Origin: Polyangiaceae bacterium
GTDB lineage: Bacteria; Myxococcota_A; Polyangia; Polyangiales; Polyangiaceae
Length of the DNA: 64,000 bases
Reading direction: 5' to 3'
NCBI GenBank assembly: GCA_044224495.1
Contig: JBGAKG010000027.1
Coordinates: 29,521-93,520 of the forward strand
Shown here piece by piece: positions 2,545 to 58,746 of the stretch. The notes under the pieces were generated by a model. It saw only the letters and a list, made by a program, of their open reading frames with translations, was not told the origin of the DNA and did no database searches. Position 1 is the stretch's first letter. Every line of letters starts with the position of its first letter. A program made the position numbers and the translations under genes.

Positions 2545-3324
2545 ATGACGATGTTCGGCGTTCGTTCGATCCTCTGGGGCACTCTCTTCACCATCTGCGG
2601 CTGCGCGACGAGCGCCGGACCCTTCGGCTCGATGCCCGACGCCGACGGCGGCACCACGCCGAGCGGCGTCCGACTCGAAGTGACGGCGACCACGGCCCCG
2701 ACGGAGGTCCGCGCGATCCTCCCGCAGCCCGGCCGCCGCTACGTCGCGCTCGCGCTCGCCCTCACGAACGAGACGGACGGGGACGTCACCGCCGCGTTCT
2801 CGAGCTTCGCGCTCGAGACCAGCGCCGCGCTCGTATTGCTCCCGGCCGCCGCGAGCGCGTTCGTGAAGACCCCGTGCGCGCTCGACACGCTCATCGGCGC
2901 GGGTGGAAGCTTCGCATGCGAGCTCGTGTTCGAGGTTCCGCTCGACCAACACGCGACGCGCATCCGCTACGACGATCGGCAGGGGCACGGCGGCAGCGCC
3001 GACCTCCCCGTCCCCGTCGCGCCGAGCACGTGCACCGTCACCGAGTGCTGGCGCGCCGCTCCACGCGCGGAGCCCGACCACTGCATCGCGTGCCTCGCGA
3101 CGTCGTGCGGCGCCGAGCTCTTCGCCTTCGCCGACGCGTGCGGCTCCGCGTGCGACTGCCCCCTCCCCACGCGGAGCGACCTGCTCGGCGGCGCCGAGCG
3201 CGAGTGCAGCTGCTTCGCGGGCTGCGCGACCGACCGTCCCTGCGCCGCCGCGCTCGCCGCGTGGGGTGAGTGCGCGCGCGCCTGCCAGGGCGTCTGCGAC
3301 GACGCTCGCTGCGCTCCGCCGTGA
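2545..3324 (+). CDS. Cys-rich lipoprotein, hypothetical
   Basis: Internal ATG at 2545 in the frame of ORF 1987..3324, preceded by a GGAG Shine-Dalgarno. Signal peptide with lipobox FTICGC. The C-terminal half is Cys-rich. The upstream part of the long ORF is an Arg-rich artefact. Confidence 0.55.
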   Translation: MTMFGVRSILWGTLFTICGCATSAGPFGSMPDADGGTTPSGVRLEVTATTAPTEVRAILPQPGRRYVALALALTNETDGDVTAAFSSFALETSAALVLLPAAASAFVKTPCALDTLIGAGGSFACELVFEVPLDQHATRIRYDDRQGHGGSADLPVPVAPSTCTVTECWRAAPRAEPDHCIACLATSCGAELFAFADACGSACDCPLPTRSDLLGGAERECSCFAGCATDRPCAAALAAWGECARACQGVCDDARCAPP

Positions 3325-3347
3325 CGACTTTCGGATAGGATCGGGGG

Positions 3348-4310
3348 ATGCGTCGGATGGCTCCCGCGCTCGCGTTGGCGTTCATCGCCCTGTCGACGGC
3401 GCGGTGCGCGCTCGTCAGCGGGTTGGACGGCCTCTCCGTCGGCGAGGGCACCGACGCCGCGACCGCGACCGACGCGAGCGACGCGAGCTCGCGCGACGCC
3501 GTAGCGGACGCGCCGGCCGACGTCGCCCCGCCCGACGGGGGCTGCACCTGCGTCCCCATCCCCGCCGGGTGGACCAGCGTCCGCTTCGCGGCCGCGACCA
3601 ACACGCCGTGCCCGATCGGCGAGCCGAGCGCCGATCTCACGCTCGGCCCCTTCGCGGGCGCCGCCACTGGCAGCTGCACGTGCACCTGCACCACCAACGT
3701 GACCTGCGCCAACCCGACGGCCGAGTTCTTCGGCACGGTCGCGTGCGGCAACCTCGCCGGGGTGGCGACCGTGAACACGAGCGGAGCCTGCCTCCCGTTT
3801 CCGGTCGCGCCCAACGGCATCGACAGCCTGCACTTCGCGCCGGTCAGCGCAACCTGTACCGGCACCGCCGCGGCGCTGCCGTCCGCATCGAGCGGCAGCG
3901 GGCGCCGCTGCACGCCTCCATCGACCTGCGGCACCGGCCTCGGTTGCGACGGCGCGACCGGGCCGTTCGCGGCATGCATCTCTCGCGACGGCGACCAGAC
4001 GTGCCCGACGGACTACCCGAAGAGGACCGCCGCCGCGTCGTCCGTCGTCGACGGGCGCGTCTGCTCGGGGTGCGCGGGGTGCAACGTCTCGTCCCCGGCC
4101 TGCACCTACGACCTCAAGACCTTCAAGAACAACGCGTGCACGCAGACCACCGGGACCGCCTCCGGCGCGTCCGGCGCTTGTACGCAGCTCGTGGGCGAAG
4201 CCTTCTACACTGCCACCGTGAAGGCGACCGCGACGTGCACCCCCTCCGCGGGCACCGGCTCCGGCTCCACGACGGTCATGGGCCTCCAGACCATCTGCTG
4301 CAAAGGCTGA
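3348..4310 (+). CDS. secreted Thr/Cys-rich hypothetical protein
   Basis: Signal peptide MRRMAPALALAFIALSTARCA. Thr/Ala/Cys-rich mature region. GGGGG Shine-Dalgarno upstream. Confidence 0.55.
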   Translation: MRRMAPALALAFIALSTARCALVSGLDGLSVGEGTDAATATDASDASSRDAVADAPADVAPPDGGCTCVPIPAGWTSVRFAAATNTPCPIGEPSADLTLGPFAGAATGSCTCTCTTNVTCANPTAEFFGTVACGNLAGVATVNTSGACLPFPVAPNGIDSLHFAPVSATCTGTAAALPSASSGSGRRCTPPSTCGTGLGCDGATGPFAACISRDGDQTCPTDYPKRTAAASSVVDGRVCSGCAGCNVSSPACTYDLKTFKNNACTQTTGTASGASGACTQLVGEAFYTATVKATATCTPSAGTGSGSTTVMGLQTICCKG

Positions 4311-4319
4311 TGGACAAAA

Positions 4320-6700
4320 AGCGTCGAGGCGACCTGGTCACCCAGGTCGCCTCGGCGGAAGCTCACTTGAATCGTGGCAGGCCGCTTGGCCTCTCTCGAC
4401 AGTCTTCGTGCCGAATCACGATTCGCTGCGCCTCGAACGAAGCTACTCCCCGCTACCGAGAGCTCTCCGTGAGGTCGCCATCTACGGGTGTGGCCCGATG
4501 CTCGTCGGGGTCTCTTTCCGGTTCGCGCCGTGAGGACCCTGAGAGTCGGTGGAGCTATTCGCTACCACCGGCTTCGGAAGAACGCCGTCTCGCTTCACGC
4601 CTGGCCCGTACCAAATTGGTACGCACCGGGTGCAGACCTCCCTCGCCTTCGTACGGCTGGAGAAGCCTCTCGCGCCACGTGCCTTCCTCTGGAGCTCTTC
4701 GTCGAGTCGGTGCACCGTCGGGTCCATCCCGCCGGTCGCCTTCGGCCCCACGCCACCGGCTTGCGCCGATGTCGCCAGGCTGTCCGACCCTCCGGAGCCG
4801 CTACATCTCTCGTTCCCCGTCAAGGGACCGAGCTGCCTTCGGCTCCGAGCTCCTGATCCGGTGTTCGAAACGCTACGAGCTCACGCTCGCTTCGCCGTCG
4901 ACCGTCCACACTTCCTTTCGAGAAGCGCAGACGCCCTTCACATGCCGCTTCATCCTTTGGCTTCGGCCGAAGACCACGTCAGTGGTTGCTTCGGAGGCCT
5001 CGGACTAGCCCCCGTTCTGCCAAGCAGACCTTGCGATCCACCCGCAGTCCAAGGACGAGACACGCTCGAACCCGTCTCTGCCATCGTACCCATCCACTCG
5101 TGCATCCCTACTCGTTCGTTTTCGCCCCTCGCGCCGATACGTAAGTGTCGGTGCTCGGTATCCCCGTCGTGCGTTCGAGCCGACGAGGGCTCCCCCGGTT
5201 GCCCGAGAGAGAGACGAGAGCCTGAGCGGTTCACGCCGCTAGACCCGCCGGGCCGCGCCTACTTTCTACGCCACGTGCGACGAACGTATTCGGTTCGCCG
5301 CCGCCTGCGGGCGGAGCCCTGGATCTCCCGTCGACTGCAGCTGATGTTGCGCCGCAGCTCTAGACCGCTTCCCCGATGCTCCGTGACGAGCACCGCTTTC
5401 CCGGTCCGGAAGACCTTCCATCGAAAGGAGCTTTTTCCTCGACGTTCCACCTCACGGTGGGCGCCGCCTCGACTGAGCTCTCGCTCACCGAGGAGCCGGA
5501 TGCGCTTCCGGGGATGGCCATCCCCTGCGCTTCCTACCGCCCCGTCACCGGACGCTTTCGCTTCGCCCCAAGCGCGATTCCGCGCGCCTGCGACGTCCGA
5601 TCGAGGTCCCCGTTCACGCACCGTGGAAACCGGAGCTTCCCGTGCACGCTTCTCTGGACCAGCGGTCACCGGAGTCTCTGCAACGCTGTTGCCGAGCCCG
5701 GGTGCCTTTCGACTTCTGCAACGAATTGTCAAACGTAGGGTCGCATTCAGCGGGCGCGATCCCTGCTCGCCACGACGTTCCGTGCGGCGTTGCCCGATCG
5801 GGTCGGCGGTTTTCCCGCCACGACGCTGCGCCCCTTGCGGAGGCGGAGCGGCGCCCGTACCGAGCGGCAAGTGATGCGGTCTCTCCGACGCAGCCAGCTA
5901 GCTGACCACCCTCCCCATCGAACATGGGGACCCGCCGCTGGAGGCCCTCGTGAGGCTTCGACCAACGACGACATGAGAGTCGCACCAACCGAAACACACC
6001 GAGATGGTTTCGAGGCGAAGGAGCTTTCCGGATTGCAGCCCGCTGCTCCACCGCGCGCCGACCCGAGGGTCGACACACGTCCCCGCTCGACATGTTCGCG
6101 CATCTCCTGTCACCCTTCGGGCCGCGCACGCCGGTTGGAGCCGAGCCTGCGCAGGAGCCGAAGCGCCTAGGCCCCCTGCCGTTTCGCCGACCCGCGAAGG
6201 CCGACGGCGTGAGGAGCCGAGATGCGATCCAACTTCGTGGAAGCGAAGGGGTCGTGCCCCATCGCCTGGAGCTGCTTCGACGCCGCCCTTTCGGACGTGG
6301 CCGGAGCCGCTCGCGCTGTTTCCCGTCGAGGGTGCCGCCCGGGTCTGACGACCCAAGCGCGCTTGAAGAATCCCGACGTGGCCGGGATCGGCGGCACCGG
6401 CGAACCGGATGCCTGACCTCCCCCGACCGCAGCGCCCAGTGAAGCTGGATGCGATCCAGATGCCCGCGGAACCGATGTACCGCGAACTTCGAAAGCACTT
6501 ATGCCAATTCTCGTTCGTCAGCGCAACAGAAAATCGACGTCTCAATGCTCTTTTTTTTCTCCACTTGGTTATTCACACACCTTCCCCCAGGTTATCCACA
6601 GCGCGATGGAACCCTGGTTTTTCCCGCTCCGCGTGAAGATCGGCCCGATCGGGACCCGACAATCGCTTCGACAAGCATGTTTGAATTTGTGCCCATCAAT
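4320..6700. other. ORF-poor region of lower GC (about 60-62%), about 2.3 kb, no recognisable protein in any frame
   Basis: Every overlapping six-frame ORF here translates to Arg/Ser/Pro-rich nonsense. GC is lower than in the flanking genes. The region contains one copy of the 17-nt palindrome (4607-4623), a TTATCCACA DnaA-box-like 9-mer and, near 6650-6720, AT-rich inverted and direct repeats. Confidence 0.5.
4607..4623. repeat. 17-nt near-palindrome CGTACCAAATTGGTACG (copy A)
   Basis: 8-bp inverted arms CGTACCAA/TTGGTACG around a central A. One of four related copies in the window. Confidence 0.6.
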
Positions 6701-6767
6701 TGTGTTTGATTGATGGGTTTGAATTTGTACCCGCGCGAGAACGCTGAGCTTCGGCTACTCTCCGTGC

Positions 6768-7304
6768 ATGCGCACTCGCACCACTCTCTCGGTTTTCCTC
6801 CTCGGGTCGGCGCTGGTGTACGTGGCCTGCGGTGGTGCGACCAAACCGCCTACGAACGGCGACACGCCGGCCGACTCGGCGAGCGCAGCGACCACCTCCG
6901 CCCCCGCGACGAGCTCGAGCGCGAGTACCGCACCCGCGACGAGCTCGAGCGCCGTCGCATCGGCCGCTCCCGCCCCCAGCGCGAGCGCCGCCCCGATGAA
7001 CACGGGCGATCCGTGCGCCGACGTCTCCGCGCCCTACGAAGCGAAGGTCCGCCCCGACGTGAAGAAGTGCTTCTTCGACGCGATGGCGAAGCGGCCCGAT
7101 CTCGACGGCCACATCCGCATCACCGCCGCCGTCAACACGTCGGGCAAGATCGGCAACGTCGTCATCCAGAACGACAAGATCCTCGGCAAGGATCTCGTCA
7201 CGTGCATGACGAACGCCGTGAAGGCCGGCGGCTTCGACGGCCCCGCGTGCTCGGGCAAGTCGATCGTGATGAACATGGCCTTCGGCGCAGCCGCGCGGAA
7301 CTGA
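6768..7304 (+). CDS. lipoprotein with TonB-C-like / AgmX-like C-terminal domain
   Basis: Lipobox LVYVACGG. Ser/Ala/Thr-rich linker. The C-terminal GHIRITAAVNTSGKIGNVVIQND pattern resembles the TonB C-terminal fold. Confidence 0.55.
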   Translation: MRTRTTLSVFLLGSALVYVACGGATKPPTNGDTPADSASAATTSAPATSSSASTAPATSSSAVASAAPAPSASAAPMNTGDPCADVSAPYEAKVRPDVKKCFFDAMAKRPDLDGHIRITAAVNTSGKIGNVVIQNDKILGKDLVTCMTNAVKAGGFDGPACSGKSIVMNMAFGAAARN

Positions 7305-10980: not shown

Positions 10981-11798
10981 GCGCCACCCCCGAGCTTGGG
11001 CAGCGTGCCGCTCCGGACGCGCTCACCGTGCTCGAGCAGCTCGGAGATGCGCGCCTTCACGGTCGCGACGTGGTGCTCGATCGTCGCGTCGTCTTCGTTG
11101 CCGGTGCCCTCGACCACGATCGGCTCGCCGTAGTGCACGGCCAGCGGGACCGGCAGCGGCACGGGAAGCAGGTACGCCGTGATCGGGACGTAGGGTGCAC
11201 CGAACAGCCGCCCGAGCGCCTTCGCGTTGAAGACGGTGGGGAACGCATCCCCGCCGCCGATGAAGGCGAACGGGATGATCGGCGACTTGGTCTGCATCGC
11301 GAGCCGGACGAAGCCGCTGCCGAAGTGTACCAAACTGGTACGTTCCCAGTAGAGCTTGGCCGTCCCGCGCGCGCCCTCCGGGAAGACCATGAGCAACCGG
11401 TCGTCGTTCAGGAAGTGGATGCAGTGCTCGGGCAGCCCCGTGAACTGGCCCACCCGCGACGACCAGAGCGCCGAGATCGGGATGCGGTTCAGGAACTTCT
11501 CGACCATGCCCTGCGCGAGGCGCGGCGGGTCCATGTCGAAGAACATCGACGCGATGACCATCGCGCCGTCGATGGCGACGCCACCGGAGTGGTTGCCGAC
11601 GAGCATCGCGCGCCCGCGCTTCGGCACGTTGGCGATGCCGTAGCTCTTCACGCGGAAGTAGTCCTTGTACATCGCGCCGAGCGCGGCGAAGAACACCTTG
11701 AGGTGCTTCTTCGAGATGCCGTACGGGTCCACGCCGTAGCGGCTCCACGGGACCTCGAGCCGGTCGATGCGATCGTCGATCTCGGAGAGGAGGGACAT
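10977..11798 (-). CDS. 1-acyl-sn-glycerol-3-phosphate acyltransferase family (PlsC-like)
   Basis: The [10 protein letters not shown] and FPEGARG motifs identify the acyltransferase. Start at MSLLSEI. The stop overlaps the downstream epimerase start by 4 bp. Contains 17-nt palindrome copy B in frame. Confidence 0.75.
11326..11342. repeat. 17-nt near-palindrome TGTACCAAACTGGTACG (copy B, 15/17 identity)
   Basis: Lies inside the PlsC-like CDS and encodes ERTSLVH on the minus strand. Confidence 0.5.
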
Positions 11799-15928: not shown

Positions 15929-16897
15929 ATGACGTTCTCCCGCTCCCGCGTTCCCCTCCTCGTCCTCGCGCACCTCGGTCTCGTCCCGTTCGTCGCCTGC
16001 AAGGAGGACGACACTCGCGTCGTCGCACCGATCGGGAGCGCCTCCGCCACCGAGTCGGCGACCGCACCCGGCTCCGCGACCGCGACCGCGCCCGGCTCCG
16101 CGACCGCGAGCGCCACGGCGACTGCGACCGCGACGGCCACCGCGACGACGAGCGCCGCGCTGAAGCCCGGCGAGTGCCGCGAGGATCGCGACTGCCCGCC
16201 GTACGCCGAGTGCTCCACCGCGAAGGCCTACCCGCCCGGTTCCCTCGGGCACTGCGTCGAGCGCGAGCACTACAACCTCGGGCGCCCGCTCGTCGTCGCC
16301 GGGCAGGCTCACGTCGCGCCGTACGCGCGCCCGCTCGCCATCACGTCGGCGGAAGCCGCTGCGCTCGCGCGCGCGGCCCGCGAAGAGCACGCCAGCATCG
16401 CCGCCTTCGCGCGCACGATCAGCGAGCTCATGGCGCTCGGCGCACCGACCTGGCTCCTCTTCGAGACGCAGAGCGCCCTCGCCGACGAGATCCGGCACAC
16501 CGAGCTCACGCTCGACGCGCTCGCGCGACTGACCGGCGAGCCGCTGGTCCTCGGCCGACTCCCCGCCGCAGCGGCGCCTCTCCGCGGAGGCCCTGCTGCG
16601 GCGGAGGAGCTCTTCCGCGACGTCTTCCGCGGCGGTGCCGTCGGCGAGACGATCGCCGCCGCGAGCGCGGAGCAAGCGCGCGACGCTGCAACCAACGACG
16701 AGCTCCGCGCGCTCTACGACACGATCTGCCGCGACGAGGCCAAGCACGCAGCGCTCGCGTTCAAGACGCTGCGCTGGTTGCTCGGCGAACAGCCGGAGCT
16801 CGCGAGCGTGCTCGGCGAAGAGAAGGAGCGTCTCGCACGCGAGGGCACGCTCGAAGAGCGGCTCCTGGTCGCTCCGTTGCTCGACGTCCTCGGTTGA
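15929..16897 (+). CDS. ferritin-like domain lipoprotein
   Basis: Lipobox FVAC. An (Ala-Thr)n linker encoded by GCGACC repeats. The C-terminal region EEHASIAAFARTISELMALGAP...EIRHTEL is ferritin-like. Confidence 0.6.
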   Translation: MTFSRSRVPLLVLAHLGLVPFVACKEDDTRVVAPIGSASATESATAPGSATATAPGSATASATATATATATATTSAALKPGECREDRDCPPYAECSTAKAYPPGSLGHCVEREHYNLGRPLVVAGQAHVAPYARPLAITSAEAAALARAAREEHASIAAFARTISELMALGAPTWLLFETQSALADEIRHTELTLDALARLTGEPLVLGRLPAAAAPLRGGPAAAEELFRDVFRGGAVGETIAAASAEQARDAATNDELRALYDTICRDEAKHAALAFKTLRWLLGEQPELASVLGEEKERLAREGTLEERLLVAPLLDVLG

Positions 16898-19948: not shown

Positions 19949-21262
19949 ATGGACCTCGCCGCCCTCCACCGAGCCCACGTCGCCGCGCTCCAAGCCGCGT
20001 ACGAGCGCATCCTCTCCGAATCCGGACTCGATGCGCTCCTGATCCACGCCGGATCGATCGTGCTGAAGACCCAGGCCGACGATCAGTATTGGCCCCTGCG
20101 TCCCACGCCGCACTTCCACCACTGGCTCCCGCTGACCGAGCCGGAAGCCGCTCTCCTCGTACGCGGCGGACAGAAGCCGCTCCTCCTGCGCCCCGCCGAA
20201 GAGAGCATCTGGGAGTCGCCCGTGCCGCTGCCGGCGCCGTTCCTGCTCGAGCCGTTCGCGGTCGAGAAGTACGCGAAGTGGGAGCAGGTGAAATCCCACC
20301 TGCCGGGGCGCGTCGCGTTCGTCGGCGACGCGGGCGCGCGCGGGGCCGCGCTCGGCATCGAGCGCGTGAACGAGAAGACCCTCGTCGCCAAGCTCGATGC
20401 GCTGCGCGTGGAGAAGAGCGCCTACGAGATCGCCTGCTTGGCGGAGGCGAACCGGGTCGCCGCGCGTGGGCACGTGCGCGTGCGCGATGCGTTCTTCGCC
20501 GGCGAGACGTCGGAGCTCGCGCTCCACCTCCTGTTCCTCTCGGCCACCGCGCAGGACGACCCCGAGACGCCCTACAAGAACATCGTCGCGCTCGGCCCCC
20601 ACGCCGCCACGCTCCACCACGTGACCTACGCGAAGGACGCGGCCGGCGCGCCGTCCCTGCTGCTCGACGCGGGCGCGACGTACCTGGGCTACTGCTCGGA
20701 CGTGACGCGCACCCACGTCGCGCCGCGCGGGGGTGCCGGCGCCGAGACGTTCGCGGCGATGGTGAGCGCGATGGACGCGATGCAGCAGAGGCTCGCCGCC
20801 CACGCGCGGCTCGGGCGCCCCTACGAGGAGCTCCACGACGAGTCCCACCGCGAGGTGAGCCAGATCCTGCATGATACCAAATTGGTACGACTCTCGGCCG
20901 CCGAGATCGACGCCCAGGGCATCAGCCGGGCCTTCTACCCGCACGGGCTCGGGCACTCGCTCGGCCTCCAGTGCCACGACGTCGGCTGCGCGACCACGAA
21001 GCCGCGGCCCGACAACCCGTTCCTCCGCAACACCACGAAGATCGCGCCGGGGCAGTGCTTCACGATCGAGCCCGGCCTCTACTTCATCGCCCCGCTCCTC
21101 GCGAAGCTGCGCTCCGAGCCCGCCGGCAAGCACGTCGATTGGGCGCTCGTCGAGGCGCTCACGCCGTTCGGCGGCATCCGGATCGAGGACGACATCGTGG
21201 TCGAGGCCACCGGCCCGGTGAAGAACCTCACGCGCGAGGTCCTCGACGAGCGGAAGGCATGA
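19949..21262 (+). CDS. pepQ: Xaa-Pro dipeptidase (M24B)
   Basis: N-terminal PepQ-type domain plus the M24 metal ligands (HGLGHSLGLQCHDVG, IEPGLY, IRIEDD). Contains 17-nt palindrome copy C in frame (DTKLVR). Confidence 0.85.
   Translation: MDLAALHRAHVAALQAAYERILSESGLDALLIHAGSIVLKTQADDQYWPLRPTPHFHHWLPLTEPEAALLVRGGQKPLLLRPAEESIWESPVPLPAPFLLEPFAVEKYAKWEQVKSHLPGRVAFVGDAGARGAALGIERVNEKTLVAKLDALRVEKSAYEIACLAEANRVAARGHVRVRDAFFAGETSELALHLLFLSATAQDDPETPYKNIVALGPHAATLHHVTYAKDAAGAPSLLLDAGATYLGYCSDVTRTHVAPRGGAGAETFAAMVSAMDAMQQRLAAHARLGRPYEELHDESHREVSQILHDTKLVRLSAAEIDAQGISRAFYPHGLGHSLGLQCHDVGCATTKPRPDNPFLRNTTKIAPGQCFTIEPGLYFIAPLLAKLRSEPAGKHVDWALVEALTPFGGIRIEDDIVVEATGPVKNLTREVLDERKA
20873..20889. repeat. 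17-nt near-palindrome GATACCAAATTGGTACG (copy C, 15/17 identity)
   Basis: Lies inside pepQ. Confidence 0.5.
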
Positions 21263-38661: not shown

Positions 38662-39005
38662 CAGCGCCCCATCACCCGCGCGAGCCCGAGAGCATGGCGC
38701 ACGTCTTCCTCCGACAACCCCGTCTCGGCCGCGAGCTCCGTGGGGCGCGGCGTTCGTCCCAATTTGGTACGAAGGACGCGAGCCGCGTCGAGAACCCGCG
38801 CGAGCTTCCGTTCGCCGTCGCCCCCGCTCGGCGCGATCACCCGACGCCCGTTCGCCTCGAGCCGGGTCAGGAGCTGGTCGACGTCGTCCGTCCCCGCGGC
38901 GGCGAGCCCGATCGCCTCGCCGATGCGATCGAGGTGGACCTCCCGCGAATCCTCGCTCTCGGCGAGGAGCCGCTGGAGGGTGGCCTCGAGCTCGGCGGGG
39001 GTCAC
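38661..39005 (-). CDS. small protein resembling sigma-70 region 1.1 plus region 3.0 (sigma fragment-like)
   Basis: GTG start overlaps the upstream stop (GTGA). DDVDQLLTRLEANGRRV resembles the end of sigma-70 region 1.1. LGRTPRPTELAAETGLSEEDVRHALGLA resembles region 3.0. No region 2 or region 4. Contains 17-nt palindrome copy D. Confidence 0.45.
   Translation of the reverse strand: MTPAELEATLQRLLAESEDSREVHLDRIGEAIGLAAAGTDDVDQLLTRLEANGRRVIAPSGGDGERKLARVLDAARVLRTKLGRTPRPTELAAETGLSEEDVRHALGLARVMGR
38755..38771. repeat. 17-nt near-palindrome CGTCCCAATTTGGTACG (copy D, 16/17 identity to the reverse-complement form)
   Basis: Lies inside the small sigma-like CDS and encodes RTKLGR on the minus strand. 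Confidence 0.5.
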
Positions 39006-54331: not shown

Positions 54332-55534
54332 TTGGAGCAATCGGAAGTCGAGATCCTCGTGAACGAGCTCGAGACGCGGGTGGACCGTCTCCGCTCGCTC
54401 TACGATCAGTACTTCATGGGGATCGAGCGCGTGCCGCCGGCGGTACCGCACAAGGACGTCGACCGGCGCGTGCAGGTGCTGCGGCGCGAGCAGATCCGGA
54501 ACACGGGTCTGCGCTTCCGTTTCCAGATGATCGTGCAGCGCTACAACACCTTCCAATCCTATTGGATCCGGATCTGCCGCCAGATCGAAGAGGGCACCTA
54601 CAAGCGCGACGTGTTGCGAGCCAAGCGAAAGGAGGTCGAGCGCGTCGCACGAGAGAGCATGCCGCCGGCCTCGATCGACATCACGGGGGATCTCGAGCTC
54701 GAGGAGGTCGAGGACCTCGAGGCGCTCCTCGCGGACGAGGCCGAGACCACGGCGAAGGGTGGGCTCGCGCCCGCGCCGAGCGCGGCGAAAGCGCCGCCGG
54801 TGCCCGCCGCGAAGCCGTCGCCTCCGGCCCCGGCCGCGAAGCCCGCTCCCGCGCCCGCCGCTGCGAAGCCGGCGCCGGCGCCGCTGAAGCTCGACGATCT
54901 CGACGATTTCGACGCGCTCGGTGAGAAGCCGACGAAGCTCCGCAACGAGCCGGCTGCCGCGAAACCGGCGCCCGGGCCGGCGGCGCCGGCGAAGCCCGGC
55001 CCGGCCGCGCCCGTCGGCCCCGTCGCGGTGGCGCCGATCGCGGGTGCGGGTGGCGCGAGGCCGGTGTGGAAGAAGGTGTCGGCGCCCGCAGCCGGGGTCT
55101 CGATCCCGATCGCGACGCCGAACAAGCCCATCGTCCCCTCGGCGGCGCCCCGGGTGGAGCCGCCGAAGCCCGAGCCGAAGCCCGAAGCGCCGAAGCCGGA
55201 GGCACCCCGACCGGCGGCCGCGGCGGCACCTGCCGCCAGCGCGGCAGCCGATGCAAAGAAGCCGGTTCGTCCGCGGCCGGAGCAGCCGCCTCCCCGCAAA
55301 CCGCTCGGGCCGAGCGACCTACCCGATGCGCGGGTCCGGCAGATCTACGCCGAATACGTGCGCTCGAAGCGGGCGCAGAACGAGTCGACGGCGGCCCTCA
55401 CCTACGAGTCGATGGCCAAATCCATCCGCGACTCGTCGGAGAAGCTCCGCGACAAGCACGGCGGGAAGATGGTGGACTTCGAGGTCTCCGTCAAAGACGG
55501 GAAGACCATCCTGAAGCCGGTCGTGAAGGGCTGA
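54332..55534 (+). CDS. hypothetical protein with Pro/Ala/Lys-rich central linker (myxobacterial conserved)
   Basis: Structured N-terminal domain (about 110 aa) and C-terminal domain (about 90 aa) separated by a long PAAKP-type repeat linker. Confidence 0.5.
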   Translation: MEQSEVEILVNELETRVDRLRSLYDQYFMGIERVPPAVPHKDVDRRVQVLRREQIRNTGLRFRFQMIVQRYNTFQSYWIRICRQIEEGTYKRDVLRAKRKEVERVARESMPPASIDITGDLELEEVEDLEALLADEAETTAKGGLAPAPSAAKAPPVPAAKPSPPAPAAKPAPAPAAAKPAPAPLKLDDLDDFDALGEKPTKLRNEPAAAKPAPGPAAPAKPGPAAPVGPVAVAPIAGAGGARPVWKKVSAPAAGVSIPIATPNKPIVPSAAPRVEPPKPEPKPEAPKPEAPRPAAAAAPAASAAADAKKPVRPRPEQPPPRKPLGPSDLPDARVRQIYAEYVRSKRAQNESTAALTYESMAKSIRDSSEKLRDKHGGKMVDFEVSVKDGKTILKPVVKG

Positions 55535-55556
55535 CGGCCTGACTAAAAGCGGCGGC

Positions 55557-55793
55557 TCAGTGGCCGCGCGCGCGGAATCCCTCGTCGTCACCACAGAATA
55601 CGATCGCGCAGTGGCTCATCGCGTTGGCTTGAATGCGGGCGCAGAGCTCGACCAGGTCCTCGTCCGAGTCGACGACACTTCCTTCGACCGGCTGCACCGT
55701 CCGCCCATCGTAGCGGCAGTCATCCAGGGCGACCCAACGCCCACGGAAGTCATGGTGCTCTCGAATCTGGCCCCAGCTCAAACGACTCATCAT
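55557..55793 (-). CDS. small hypothetical protein (78 aa, DUF5678-like)
   Basis: WVALDDCRYD...VVDSDEDLVELC. Compact, plausible small protein. Confidence 0.4.
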   Translation of the reverse strand: MMSRLSWGQIREHHDFRGRWVALDDCRYDGRTVQPVEGSVVDSDEDLVELCARIQANAMSHCAIVFCGDDEGFRARGH

Positions 55794-55834
55794 TCAGAGA
55801 CGACCTCTTCCCCCCGAGTCACTACGCGCGTACG

Positions 55835-55895
55835 CCCGAGACTCTCGGTGCGTTGCGGTCCCGTTCCAAGTACGAAACCGGTTCGGAACGTACCC
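55835..55895. promoter_or_regulatory. palindromes in divergent promoter region: CCGAGACTCTCGG and GTACGAAACCGGTTCGGAACGTAC
   Basis: A perfect 13-bp palindrome, and a longer imperfect palindrome built around AACCGGTT, lie between divergent genes 55557..55793 (-) and 55969..58746 (+). Confidence 0.35.
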
Positions 55896-55968
55896 CTCGT
55901 ACACCTGGCGGAAGGGAGCGGTCAAGAAACCGCCCCCGTCGGCGGGAGTACACCCCGAGCGGAAATCC

Positions 55969-58746
55969 ATGCGAACGTCGTCCAAATTCTTGGTTTTTGG
56001 GCTCATTTTGGCCTGTGGGGCGCCGGCGCTGCCGATGGCTCCCCCGCTGGGAGGGGCCATCCCGACCCCCCCGACGAGCCTAGAAGGTAGCAACGCGAAC
56101 CATCTCGGTGCTTCCGGCGGGTCAGGGCCTCGTTCCCAACCGACGCTCCTCGCGACCGGCGACTACCTCACGCCCGAGGCCGCTCCGGGCTCGGTGCTCC
56201 TCCCTCTCGCCCCCGGTGATCCGCCGAACGTTCGCGATGCCTTCGCGGTCTCCCTCGCGCTCGATGGGCACGGCGCCCTTGCCGTCCTGACCAGCGGCTA
56301 CAACCGCGGCTCCTCCGGCAAGCGGCCCGAGCACGTCTATCTGTTCGACGTGGCCAAGGGCGCCCCCGCCCCCGGCGAGATCCTGTCCCTCCCGAACGCC
56401 TTCTGGGGCCTCGCCTTCGCCGGCGGGACCCTCCACGTGAGCGGCGGCTCCGACGATGCCGTCGCCGCCTTCCCTCCCGGCGCCGAGCCCGGCACCCACG
56501 CGGCGCCGGTCGTCACGAAGCTCGGGCACAAGACGGGCCTCGGGCTCGGACAGAGCCCCTACGCCGCCGGCCTCGGTGTGCTCCCGGACGGCACCGTCGC
56601 CGTCGCGAACCACGAGAACGACTCGCTCTCCCTCGTCGCGGCCGGCAGGGTCGGCGCCGAGATCGACCTCCGCCCCGCCACCGGCATGGGCGGCGACTTC
56701 CCCGCCGGGGTCCTGGTCGTGGGCGACCTCGTCTACGTCACCACCCAGCGAACCGGCGAGCTCCTCGAGGTGTCCCCCAAGGATCGCAAGGTGACCCGCC
56801 GCCTCCGCGTCGGCGCCCAGCCGACCAAGCTCGTCGCCACCCACGACGGAGCCACGATCTTCGTCGCCAACGCGGGGAGCGACACCGTCAGCGTCGTCGA
56901 CCGCGCGGCGTTCACCGTCACCGAGTCGATCCCGGTCGTCCCCGCCCTCCCCGACCTTCCCGCCGGCGCGACCCGCGGCGCCAACCCCAACGGGCTCGCG
57001 CTCGCCCCCGACGAGCGCACGCTCTGGGTGAGCCTCGGTGGGCTCGACGCGGTCGGCGTCATCGAGCGCGGAGACGCCGGCGCCCACCTGGTCGGCATGA
57101 TCCCGACCGGCTTCTACCCGAACGACGTCGCCGTGACCGCCGACTGGGTCTACGTCGCGTACGGCAAGAGCTCGACCGGGCCGAACCCCGGCGGGCCCCG
57201 CGCGTCGAAGCCGCCCGAGTTCGGGCCGACCGGCGGCGACGCGTTCTCCCTCTCGCTCCTTCACGGCGGGCTCCACGCGTTCCCGCGCCCGAGCGGCGCG
57301 GTCCTGGCGGCGCTGTCTCGGCAGGTGCTCGTCAACGCGCGCCTCGCGAGCCCGCCCGCCGTTCCGCCGATCTTCGAGGAGCTCCGCGGCAAGGTGAAGC
57401 ACGTCGTCTTCGTCGTCGGCGAGAACCGCACCTACGACCAGGTCCTCGGTGACCAAGCGGGGGCCGACGGTGATCCCTCGCTCGTCCACTGGGGCGACGC
57501 CAACACCCCGAACCAGCACGCGCTCGCGCGAACCTTCGTCACGTTCGACCGCTTCTTCGCCAGCGGCGGCGTCTCCGGCGACGGCTGGCAGTGGACGGTC
57601 GCGGGCCGCACCACCGACCTCACCGAGAAAGAGGTCCCCCTGATGTACGCGAACCGCGGCGAGCACAGCTACGACTGGGAGGGCTCGAACCGCGGCATCA
57701 ACGTCGGTCTCCCCACCGTCGCCGCGCGCCAGGCGTGGAACCCGAAGACACCGAGCGATCCGCGCCTGCTCCCCGGCGTGAGCGACGTGGCGGCTCCGCA
57801 TCAAGATGCGCCGTTCCTCTGGGACGTCGCGCGCGCCGCCGGGCTCGGCGTGCGGAACTACGGGTGCTTCGCCGAGGACGTCCGCTACGGCCTCAAGGAG
57901 AAGGACCCCGGGTTCGTCCCGCTGCTCCGGGATCCGGCAAAGACCAAGACGCGGGTCGCGTTCCCGAGCGCGCCGGGGTTGCTCGAAGCGACCGACCCCT
58001 ACTTCCGCGGCTTCGACATGCGCTTCCCCGACGCGTGGCGCGTCGACGAGTGGCTCCGCGAGTTCGCGCTCCAGGAGAAGCAGGGCACGTTCCCCGCGCT
58101 CACGCTCGTGCGCCTGCCCCACGATCACTTCGGCAGCTTCAAGAGCGCCGCCGCCGGGCTCGATACGCCCGACACGCAGATGGCCGACCACGACTGGGCG
58201 CTCGGGCGGCTCGTCGAGCGGCTCGCGAAGAGCCCATTTTGGGACGACACCGTCATCGTCGTCGTCGAGGACGACGCGCAGGACGGCGCGGACCACGTCG
58301 ATTCGCATCGGAGTCTTCTCTTTCTGGCCGGGGGTCACGTCGCGCGCGGCGTCGTCAGCCACCAGAGCTATGCGACACCGAGCGTGCTCCGCACGATCGA
58401 GCTGCTCCTCGGGCTCGCGCCGCTGGGCCGCAACGACGCGGTCGCCCCGCCGATCGCGGATGCGTTCTCGGCGACCGCGCTCCCTGCGGCGTTCAGCGCG
58501 CGCGTCCCCGACGTGCTCCGCACGACCAAGCTCGACCTGCCGCCCGCACCCACGGCGACGGCGCTCGTCCGCCCGCGCGGCGACGCCGCGTTCTGGGAGG
58601 CGCGAACGGCGGGGATGGACTTCTCGCGCGAAGATCGAGTGCCGACGGCCGAGCTCAACGAGGCGCTCTGGTGCGGGCTCGTCGCCCCCGACGGCTGCCG
58701 GACGCGAACCGCCGTCGCGGAGCGCGACGAGGACGACGACGACTAA
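55969..58746 (+). CDS. lipoprotein: N-terminal YVTN-type beta-propeller fused to phosphoesterase-family (phospholipase C / acid phosphatase AcpA-like) domain
   Basis: Lipobox LILACG. Propeller blades (TIFVANAGSDTVSVVD etc.). VVFVVGENRTYDQVLGD matches the phosphoesterase family signature. Confidence 0.75.
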   Translation: MRTSSKFLVFGLILACGAPALPMAPPLGGAIPTPPTSLEGSNANHLGASGGSGPRSQPTLLATGDYLTPEAAPGSVLLPLAPGDPPNVRDAFAVSLALDGHGALAVLTSGYNRGSSGKRPEHVYLFDVAKGAPAPGEILSLPNAFWGLAFAGGTLHVSGGSDDAVAAFPPGAEPGTHAAPVVTKLGHKTGLGLGQSPYAAGLGVLPDGTVAVANHENDSLSLVAAGRVGAEIDLRPATGMGGDFPAGVLVVGDLVYVTTQRTGELLEVSPKDRKVTRRLRVGAQPTKLVATHDGATIFVANAGSDTVSVVDRAAFTVTESIPVVPALPDLPAGATRGANPNGLALAPDERTLWVSLGGLDAVGVIERGDAGAHLVGMIPTGFYPNDVAVTADWVYVAYGKSSTGPNPGGPRASKPPEFGPTGGDAFSLSLLHGGLHAFPRPSGAVLAALSRQVLVNARLASPPAVPPIFEELRGKVKHVVFVVGENRTYDQVLGDQAGADGDPSLVHWGDANTPNQHALARTFVTFDRFFASGGVSGDGWQWTVAGRTTDLTEKEVPLMYANRGEHSYDWEGSNRGINVGLPTVAARQAWNPKTPSDPRLLPGVSDVAAPHQDAPFLWDVARAAGLGVRNYGCFAEDVRYGLKEKDPGFVPLLRDPAKTKTRVAFPSAPGLLEATDPYFRGFDMRFPDAWRVDEWLREFALQEKQGTFPALTLVRLPHDHFGSFKSAAAGLDTPDTQMADHDWALGRLVERLAKSPFWDDTVIVVVEDDAQDGADHVDSHRSLLFLAGGHVARGVVSHQSYATPSVLRTIELLLGLAPLGRNDAVAPPIADAFSATALPAAFSARVPDVLRTTKLDLPPAPTATALVRPRGDAAFWEARTAGMDFSREDRVPTAELNEALWCGLVAPDGCRTRTAVAERDEDDDD

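Follow-up and report, generated by a model that had tools for sequence, protein, structure and literature searches.

To our knowledge, the largest well-supported structured noncoding RNAs (ncRNAs) of bacteria, outside ribosomal RNA (rRNA), measure 0.6-0.8 kb and are represented by OLE, ROOL and GOLLD. Here we describe a locus in a 64,000-nucleotide stretch of a Polyangiaceae contig (GenBank assembly GCA_044224495.1, contig JBGAKG010000027.1, positions 29,521 to 93,520; hereafter the window, numbered from its first letter), in which positions ~6490 to 4316 of the minus strand are, with a probability that we put at roughly 0.88, the gene for a discrete, highly structured ncRNA of ~2.17 kb. Like OLE (RF01071), this would be a stand-alone bacterial ncRNA gene, unusually large and densely structured, rich in conserved helices and in long stretches that never vary; both RNAs appear to be abundant. 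OLE, however, spans ~610 nt as compared to ~2,175 nt for the window RNA, which does not match the OLE Rfam model, and while OLE occurs in anaerobic extremophilic Firmicutes beside oapA, the window RNA is found in Polyangiaceae, where its neighbour encodes a small lipoprotein and no oap-like partner was recognized. GOLLD (RF01998) and ROOL (RF03087) have been shown to form RNA-only multimeric cages (PMC12286853). They resemble the window RNA in being large and ornate, in carrying many GNRA-type loops and in having been first met mainly in environmental sequence, but at ~800 nt and ~580 nt, respectively, they are about one third of its length. In addition, GOLLD and ROOL are typically associated with phages or prophages near tRNA genes, whereas the window RNA occupies a conserved chromosomal context and has no phage, plasmid or IMG/VR match, nor any match to their covariance models. 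Some likeness to rRNA and RNase P can also be noted, as the size lies between those of 16S and 23S rRNA, the sequence is purine- and G-rich, invariant helices stand beside covarying ones and a possible helix pairing the 5' and 3' ends is predicted; in contrast to those RNAs, no model matches it and it is confined to one narrow clade, so that it is not universal.

The relation to described families was assessed with Rfam 15, whose 4,227 models include OLE, GOLLD, ROOL, HEARO, raiA, group I and group II introns, rRNAs, RNase P, transfer-messenger RNA and 6S. Zero matches were obtained over the whole window at gathering thresholds. At E <= 10, the RNA region gave only two sub-threshold chance matches, to sX12 over the terminator (24.7 bits vs. 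106) and to sbcD (15.9 vs. 40), and five homologues gave five weak matches that were unrelated and did not recur. A literature search that included full text found no description of a large myxobacterial ncRNA of this kind. A covariance-model search of this sort had been proposed in an earlier account of the region made from its letters only (the sequence-only reading); with no family matched, the RNA belongs to no described RNA family.

The alternative that survives best, albeit with a slim chance, holds that the locus encodes a known large ribozyme or mobile RNA, namely an ORF-less (lacking an open reading frame) group II or group I intron, or a member of OLE, GOLLD, ROOL or HEARO. The window RNA is indeed large, densely structured and GNRA-rich, as these are, but neither the region nor the five homologues give an Rfam match of any weight at E <= 10, including Intron_gpII and group-II-D1D4. 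The 5' end reads GAAGUUCGCGG and not GUGYG, there is no reverse-transcriptase ORF or other intron-encoded protein, and the boundaries fall at a predicted promoter and terminator rather than at exons. Furthermore, the chromosomal position is fixed in three lineages, and phage, plasmid and IMG/VR homologues are lacking.

Covariation and the functional strand

The consensus structure was derived by RNAalifold from MAFFT alignments and comprises ~700 predicted base pairs. As controls, the pairings were slid along the alignment, 500 shuffles were made and 15 column-shuffled versions of alignment columns 293-1100 were refolded. In an alignment of eight sequences, 97.0% of the cells of 599 pairs are paired (38-41% when slid), with 107 compensatory pairs compared to 13-16 in the slid controls and 52.7 +/- 4.2 in the shuffles. 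With 22 sequences, the 5' half contains 351 pairs (95.9% paired; 84 compensatory vs. 15-25 slid) and the 3' half another 351 (95.3% paired; 109 vs. 23-27), while 16 representatives that include a genomic copy from a soil metagenome (L072) yield 699 pairs, 95.6% paired, of which 193 are compensatory vs. 39-52 slid. None of the 500 shuffles attained the values observed in the 8-sequence alignment and in the 5' half of the 22-sequence one. On refolding, the observed energy was -532.9, as compared to -401.7 +/- 6.1 for the column-shuffled versions (z ~ -21), and 68 compensatory pairs were found against 9.1 +/- 3.9 (maximum 19). Compensatory changes thus exceed the controls, as is generally expected of a structured ncRNA, and the locus is likewise free of coding constraints: GC content at third codon positions (GC3) shows no periodicity, indels break the frame, ORFs are not conserved and no protein family is recognized. 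Variation at the locus preserves ~700 base pairs arranged in ~44 hairpins, many of them capped by GNRA loops.

Several features establish the strand on which this structure is formed. Read on the minus strand, the paired cells include 613 G-U combinations as opposed to 44 A-C. The minimum free energy of positions 5770-6490 is -383.8 kcal/mol on the minus strand (z = -2.8) and -328.2 on the plus strand (z = -1.75). It is in the minus-strand reading that the hairpin loops conform to GNRA, with more than 10 such tetraloops, which change between lineages inside the GNRA consensus (GAAA, GUGA, GCGA, GAGA and GCAA); UUCG loops are also present, and lineage-specific hairpins have been gained or lost. 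The G-U excess, the energy difference and the minus-strand GNRA loops therefore show that the minus strand is the functional one.

The predicted transcribed region, of ~2,175 nt, extends over 4316-6490 of the minus strand, as delimited by end-to-end homology with Joint Genome Institute (JGI) contigs and the Logan contig L069 together with the ~700 pairs and the G-U vs. A-C bias. Domain parsing of the consensus, with its ~44 hairpins, distinguishes ~14 domains around a central region. The largest predicted domain (5083-5760, minus strand; RNAalifold and domain parsing) has ~235 pairs, with the long-range helix GCGACCCUACGUUUG / CGAACAAGUAGGGAUGC at its base; its helices 35-37 are 98.6-100% paired across the sequences. 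A 28-nt block, GCGGGUCCCCAUGUUCGAUGGGGAGGGU, at 5908-5935 (minus strand) is identical in 22 of 22 aligned sequences and forms a 7-bp hairpin with a never-varying GUUCG loop, all seven pairs of this helix (helix 28) being unchanged. Several helices are sequence-invariant in this manner although neighbouring helices covary freely, which points to constraints past pairing that tertiary contacts, binding partners or chemistry could impose. The surrounding three-hairpin subdomain (5872-5987, minus strand) served as the source of a covariance model, R1, which scores the window copy at 129.7 bits (E = 8e-31) and finds no second significant match, either elsewhere in the window or among 42 further loci, the related loci searched amounting to 714 kb. 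A T-loop or tRNA-like reading of two GUUCGA motifs was discarded, given that by inspection the stems on either side of them are unlike those of a T arm, and a CsrA-type sponge was set aside as well, the RNA containing no repeated hairpin or binding module.

The exact 17-nt palindrome CGTACCAAATTGGTACG that the sequence-only reading had singled out is present at 4607-4623, where it folds, on the minus strand, into a hairpin at the periphery of the RNA (alignment A3, columns 2001-2030). Its sequence and length vary among relatives, with compensatory changes in five of the nine pairs of the helix (helix 76), in which different hairpins take its place. Three further near-copies of the palindrome, with 1-3 mismatches, lie at 11326-11342, 20873-20889 and 38755-38771, in coding regions (local GC3 0.88-0.94), where shuffles expect 0.00 matches.

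Transcript ends, promoter and terminator

The 3' end of the gene is marked by a predicted intrinsic terminator detected in a terminator scan (4316-4354, minus strand), in which a 13-bp G+C-rich hairpin (4354-4325) precedes a U run (4320-4316). L072 and a Polyangiaceae metagenome-assembled genome, L002, have this terminator in nearly the same form. Homologous contigs from environmental samples respect these boundaries. Thirteen JGI contigs, of 1,975-2,145 nt with the exception of one of 1,051 nt, all fall inside window positions 6490-4336; 11 of them run from no more than 25 nt downstream of 6490 to the terminator, stopping at or within its hairpin, and L069 (2,157 nt) has the same start and stop. 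Contigs reached through a neighbouring gene, in contrast, extend into the flanking genes. Because their ends are uniform at the predicted start and terminator, the ~2.1-kb JGI and Logan contigs are read as probable assembled transcripts, and the RNA would accordingly be abundant enough for full-length assembly from many environmental samples. The serial number of a JGI contig reflects its rank by length, and 2.1 kb at rank ~900-2,800 is typical of metatranscriptome assemblies, as those sampled here may be. Four partial Logan contigs (L046-L048 and L071) share internal end points, at the start of the invariant block GAUCGCAUCUCGGCU (window 6229) and at the palindromic hairpin (4607-4640), which could be assembly breakpoints at the palindrome or real RNA processing sites.

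The position of the terminator also bears on the possibility that the RNA is a giant cis-acting leader (a 5' untranslated region or attenuator) that controls a downstream M14 peptidase gene through this terminator. In L002, the M14 ATG lies on the same strand, 8 nt after the terminator T run (5620-5690 of that locus), leaving no room for a promoter or a Shine-Dalgarno sequence. In the window and in L072, however, two secreted-protein genes (2551-4310) and one such gene, respectively, intervene on the opposite strand between the RNA and the M14 gene, yet the RNA and its terminator are conserved; moreover, transcript-like contigs of the L002 lineage itself (L050, L053, L056 and L060, 94-97% identical to L002) end at the terminator. 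The chance of a cis-leader is slightly slimmer still than that of a known ribozyme.

At the other end, a promoter for the RNA is predicted at 6498-6526 of the minus strand. The putative extended -10, TGGCATAAG (6498-6506), is identical in the three lineages represented by genomic DNA, where it lies within the invariant block TTGGCATAAGTGCT[T/C]TCGAAGTTCGCGG. The putative -35 (6521-6526) reads TTGCGC in the window, 17 nt upstream of the -10 hexamer, and TTGCAA or TTGCGT in relatives, so that the three lineages keep TTGCnn inside TGTTGC with a spacer that varies in sequence and measures 15-17 nt. Transcription would start ~7 nt downstream of the -10, near 6490, as suggested by the promoter and the contig ends. 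Upstream of the -35, on the RNA strand, the three lineages conserve an A-tract, GAAAAAAAAG (6550-6559, minus strand), ~60 nt from the start, which is a possible UP-like element, and, between this tract and the -35, an 8-mer, GCATTGAG. A sigma-54 reading of TGGCAT-N-GC was dismissed by inspection, with a GG-to-GC spacing of 7 nt and not 10.

Two DnaA-box-like sites are found further upstream. The sequence-only reading had noted a perfect DnaA-box 9-mer, which is indeed present: the distal site (6592-6600, plus strand; TGTGGA[T/A/C]AA on the RNA strand) matches TTATCCACA perfectly in the window and has one mismatch in the other lineages. The proximal site (6569-6577, plus strand; TGTG[A/G]ATAA on the RNA strand) shows the converse pattern, being a one-mismatch copy, TTATTCACA, in the window, whereas the remaining two lineages have TTATCCACA without a mismatch. 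The motif CTG[G/T]GGGAA, on the RNA strand between both sites, is conserved in the three genomic lineages as well. Promoters regulated by DnaA are known, as in the case of dnaA and nrd in E. coli. The window RNA would resemble them in having two 9-mers matching TTATNCACA upstream of its putative core promoter, at a position kept in three lineages, although one of these has a distal box, TGTGGACAA, that does not fit the relaxed consensus.

These same boxes might instead signal an element acting as DNA, such as a replication origin (oriC), a locus that titrates or reactivates DnaA (datA- or DARS-like) or a regulatory region of another kind, a view that we find barely credible. The two 9-mers, 23 bp apart and kept in three lineages, and the AT-rich DNA with inverted and direct repeats at 6650-6732 speak in its favor. 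Nevertheless, the region contains only two boxes and the whole window three at one mismatch or fewer, which is no enrichment (7 of 100 shuffles reach three). The boxes lie outside the 2.17-kb conserved body, ~80-110 nt upstream of the RNA start, and the compensatory pairing and strand-specific G-U pairs of that body are not expected of a DNA element. Neither dnaA nor dnaN is among the called neighbours, which are instead a peptidase, a lipoprotein and an acyltransferase, and a 12-kb composition profile displays by inspection no obvious GC-skew switch at the locus. The replication-associated interpretation of the sequence-only reading is thus rejected for the body of the region.

Coding status, distribution and genomic neighbourhood

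The suggestion that 2.3 kb at this place lack a protein-like ORF is borne out. Positions 4311-6767 show no codon-position GC periodicity (phase-GC spread mostly 0.03-0.25, every phase at or below ~0.85), while the codon-phase GC analysis gives the flanking genes a GC3 of 0.87-0.98, and this is the largest stretch of the window that is free of coding signal. The runner-up is at most 0.96 kb; it corresponds to positions 55381-56340, is overlapped by ORFs and contains neither repeats nor an Rfam match. A lower GC content than in the flanking genes was also correctly perceived, but the value of 60-62% against ~70% was slightly understated: we measured 64.9% at 4320-6700, 66.3% at 4316-6490 and 50.5% in the AT-rich 6491-6767, with 73.4% and 68.9% in the flanking genes. 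On the RNA strand, 4316-6490 is composed of 36.9% G, 29.4% C, 18.4% A and 15.3% U. Relative to L002, 32 of 36 indels are not multiples of 3, with the same tendency across the relatives of the window, and variable alignment columns have no 3-nt periodicity. ORF positions differ from lineage to lineage and none is conserved. A blastn comparison of the region with the window revealed no internal repeats or paralogues. The RNA locus at 4316-6490 is noncoding.

The weakest alternatives, namely that a protein-coding gene was overlooked because of its unusual composition or that a pseudogene or mobile element has decayed here, have a close to negligible chance, as the long ORFs of 441 aa (plus strand) and 294 aa (minus strand), the longest inside 4311-6767 and annotated by gene callers in public assemblies, lack a GC3 signal and any Pfam match, frameshifting indels dominate, ORF positions shift between lineages, protein searches return ORFs lying over RNA copies wherever contigs were fetched, relatives among phages, plasmids and proteins are lacking, and neutral decay cannot account for 72-98% identity across lineages combined with invariant blocks and compensatory changes. 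The conserved protein that a profile search might have revealed, and that the sequence-only reading had named as the result which would speak against an RNA, did not appear in Pfam. An exhaustive HMMER search with the longest ORF among 1.84 billion representatives gave just 24 small clusters, as would be expected if ORFs had been called on copies of the same RNA; the contigs were checked for some of these clusters. Public gene callers place hypothetical proteins across the RNA locus, which calls for caution in annotation.

Since gene callers place spurious ORFs over the locus, these could be used as bait to reach further copies of the RNA. The 441-aa ORF was therefore searched in a collection of 5.8 billion proteins and the contigs encoding matches were fetched, which provided six more copies at 82-98% identity (L043-L048), and a second search with a spurious ORF provided seven others (L065-L071). 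In the JGI metagenomes, a scan for exact copies of an invariant 20-mer returned 15 contigs, 13 of which are homologous (L050-L063; 73-76% identity), the remaining two matching by coincidence within coding sequence. Starting from homologues of the lipoprotein next to the RNA, we reached 11 genomic contigs (L072-L082, from NCBI, ENA and Logan), in each of which the RNA gene is divergent from the adjacent lipoprotein gene, and a twelfth (L083) whose upstream sequence is too short to show whether the RNA is present. L072, a soil metagenome-assembled genome, represents the genomic counterpart of one JGI lineage (88% identical). When GTDB genomes were scanned with the 2-oxoacid dehydrogenase-like protein encoded nearby, 41 loci were obtained, among which only L002 carries the RNA; absence from the others is uninformative because the lipoprotein and M14 neighbours are also missing there. 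L002 is 77% identical to the window over 2.3 kb (window 4311-6601), even though it lacks the two genes that lie on the left of the region in the window, and the alignment is a mosaic in which long identical blocks alternate with variable stretches. DNA similarity to relatives ends exactly at 6601.

Altogether, the comparison with related genomes that had been called for finds the RNA stretch in over 30 independent contigs from about eight lineages, with 72-98% identity; three of the lineages are represented by genomic DNA with conserved neighbours. The carriers are Polyangiaceae-like soil myxobacteria of at least eight lineages. No match to the RNA was found in 50,697 phage records or in plasmid collections, and scanning IMG/VR with three conserved blocks detected a single contig, L064 (IMGVR_UViG_3300049573_000085). 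This contig and L049 share the 20-mer CCCCATGTTCGATGGGGAGG with the RNA by coding coincidence (frame ...IPMFDGED...), with no further similarity, and both were discarded. The 25-nt string CCCCATGTTCGATGGGGAGGACGC, identical to the invariant hairpin of the RNA, occurs at 2165-2189 of L049 and 2786-2810 of L064; the L049 copy belongs to an ORF reading ...IPMFDGEDA..., 18 codons past an ATG, and was judged a coincidence.

The conserved order of the locus is M14 peptidase, RNA (minus strand), lipoprotein (plus strand) and 2-oxoacid dehydrogenase-like acyltransferase. In the window, the RNA gene is flanked on the left by a gene for a Cys-rich secreted-type protein (3348-4310, plus strand) and on the right by the small lipoprotein gene (6768-7304, plus strand), which is divergent from it; the N-termini of the flanking products look like signal or lipoprotein peptides. 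Searches of the neighbouring proteins against Pfam and NCBIfam revealed no RNA-related function. In the lipoprotein, the myxobacterial AgmX/PglI C-terminal domain (TonB-C-like; NF033768) is matched weakly, at 37 bits where the cutoff is 40, and its homologues amount to only 10 clusters, 55-100% identical to the query, from metagenome contigs and two NCBI assemblies. The RNA gene adjoins the lipoprotein gene in all three cases that were checked (that of the window, P0014 and P0019).

The AT-rich segment between both genes is the divergent promoter region that they have in common. The direct repeat GTTTGAATTTGTRCCC described there by the sequence-only reading is found at 6679-6694 and 6717-6732 and the inverted repeat at 6691-6718, outside the RNA gene and upstream of the lipoprotein gene. 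The arms of the inverted repeat differ by lineage yet stay complementary, as in CCCATCAAT...ATTGATGGG in the window, CATCAAT...ATTGATG in L002 and CCATAA...TTATGG in L072 and L073. The element at 6679-6732 is either a hairpin in the leader of the lipoprotein mRNA or an operator co-evolving with its regulator. The features stressed by the sequence-only reading are, in sum, peripheral, the palindrome being a variable hairpin, the DnaA boxes lying upstream of the promoter and the AT-rich segment belonging to the divergent promoter region. With respect to tRNA genes, an 89-nt tRNA-Ala(TGC) called by ARAGORN at 16634-16722 (minus strand), inside long ORFs and with no Rfam tRNA match at the gathering threshold, is probably a false positive, and no credible tRNA is found near the RNA gene.

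Possible role and significance

The sequence-only reading had listed a large structured ncRNA, a decayed mobile element or pseudogene, and a regulatory or replication-associated region, without choosing among them. The first is strongly supported by the covariation, the strand-specific G-U pairs, the GNRA loops, the promoter and terminator and the transcript-sized contigs, and the other two have not stood up. Various observations nevertheless weigh against a discrete, highly structured ncRNA. RNAalifold itself rewards covariation, and the controls were slid and column-shuffled tests rather than R-scape. The family is narrow, all its members being at least 72% identical, and for this reason many helices never vary, while the predicted helix closing the 5' and 3' ends (helix 1) has no covariation support. 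The promoter did not pass a strict sigma-70 consensus scan, and it is from their uniform ends that an RNA origin of the ~2.1-kb contigs is deduced. Finally, no conserved protein partner was found, the sole constant neighbour being the small lipoprotein with its weak AgmX/PglI C-terminal domain.

In the mechanism that we propose for the structured ncRNA, transcription would start at ~6490 from the conserved promoter (TTGCnn, 17 nt, TGGCATAAG), preceded by the A-tract and by the two DnaA-box-like sites at about -80 and -110, and would end at the conserved intrinsic terminator to release a stand-alone transcript, which would act in trans as a folded molecule. Judging from these boxes, expression may be coupled to DnaA, i.e., to the replication or growth state of the cell. 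As for the function itself, it can be tentatively postulated, by analogy with OLE, ROOL and GOLLD, that the window RNA is architectural, either as a ribonucleoprotein scaffold or as an RNA-only higher-order assembly; a new ribozyme seems unlikely, and the rest of our belief goes to other trans-acting roles.

The sequence, strand, ends, promoter and multi-lineage alignment of the RNA are defined, with the ends and promoter as predictions, which opens it to immediate testing, since experiments by cryo-EM, pull-down and genetics can be planned from them. Among known bacterial structured RNAs outside the ribosome, even the largest would be exceeded about threefold in length. OLE, ROOL and GOLLD have each opened new biology, e.g., RNA-only cages and membrane ribonucleoproteins, and myxobacteria are noted for their large genomes, multicellular behaviour and predation. 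On balance, we lean towards the view that the window RNA is the founding member of a new class of giant bacterial ncRNA, which with ~2.2 kb, ~700 base pairs and ~44 hairpins would surpass in size every structured bacterial RNA outside the ribosome, confined to a Polyangiaceae clade, abundant in environmental transcriptomes, possibly controlled by DnaA and endowed with a function new for bacterial RNA, be it that of a new ribozyme or of a megadalton RNA or ribonucleoprotein architecture. A length of 2.2 kb at such a density of conserved structure implies a complex fold and a substantial functional capacity, whether in catalysis, in a large ribonucleoprotein machine or in a self-assembling scaffold.

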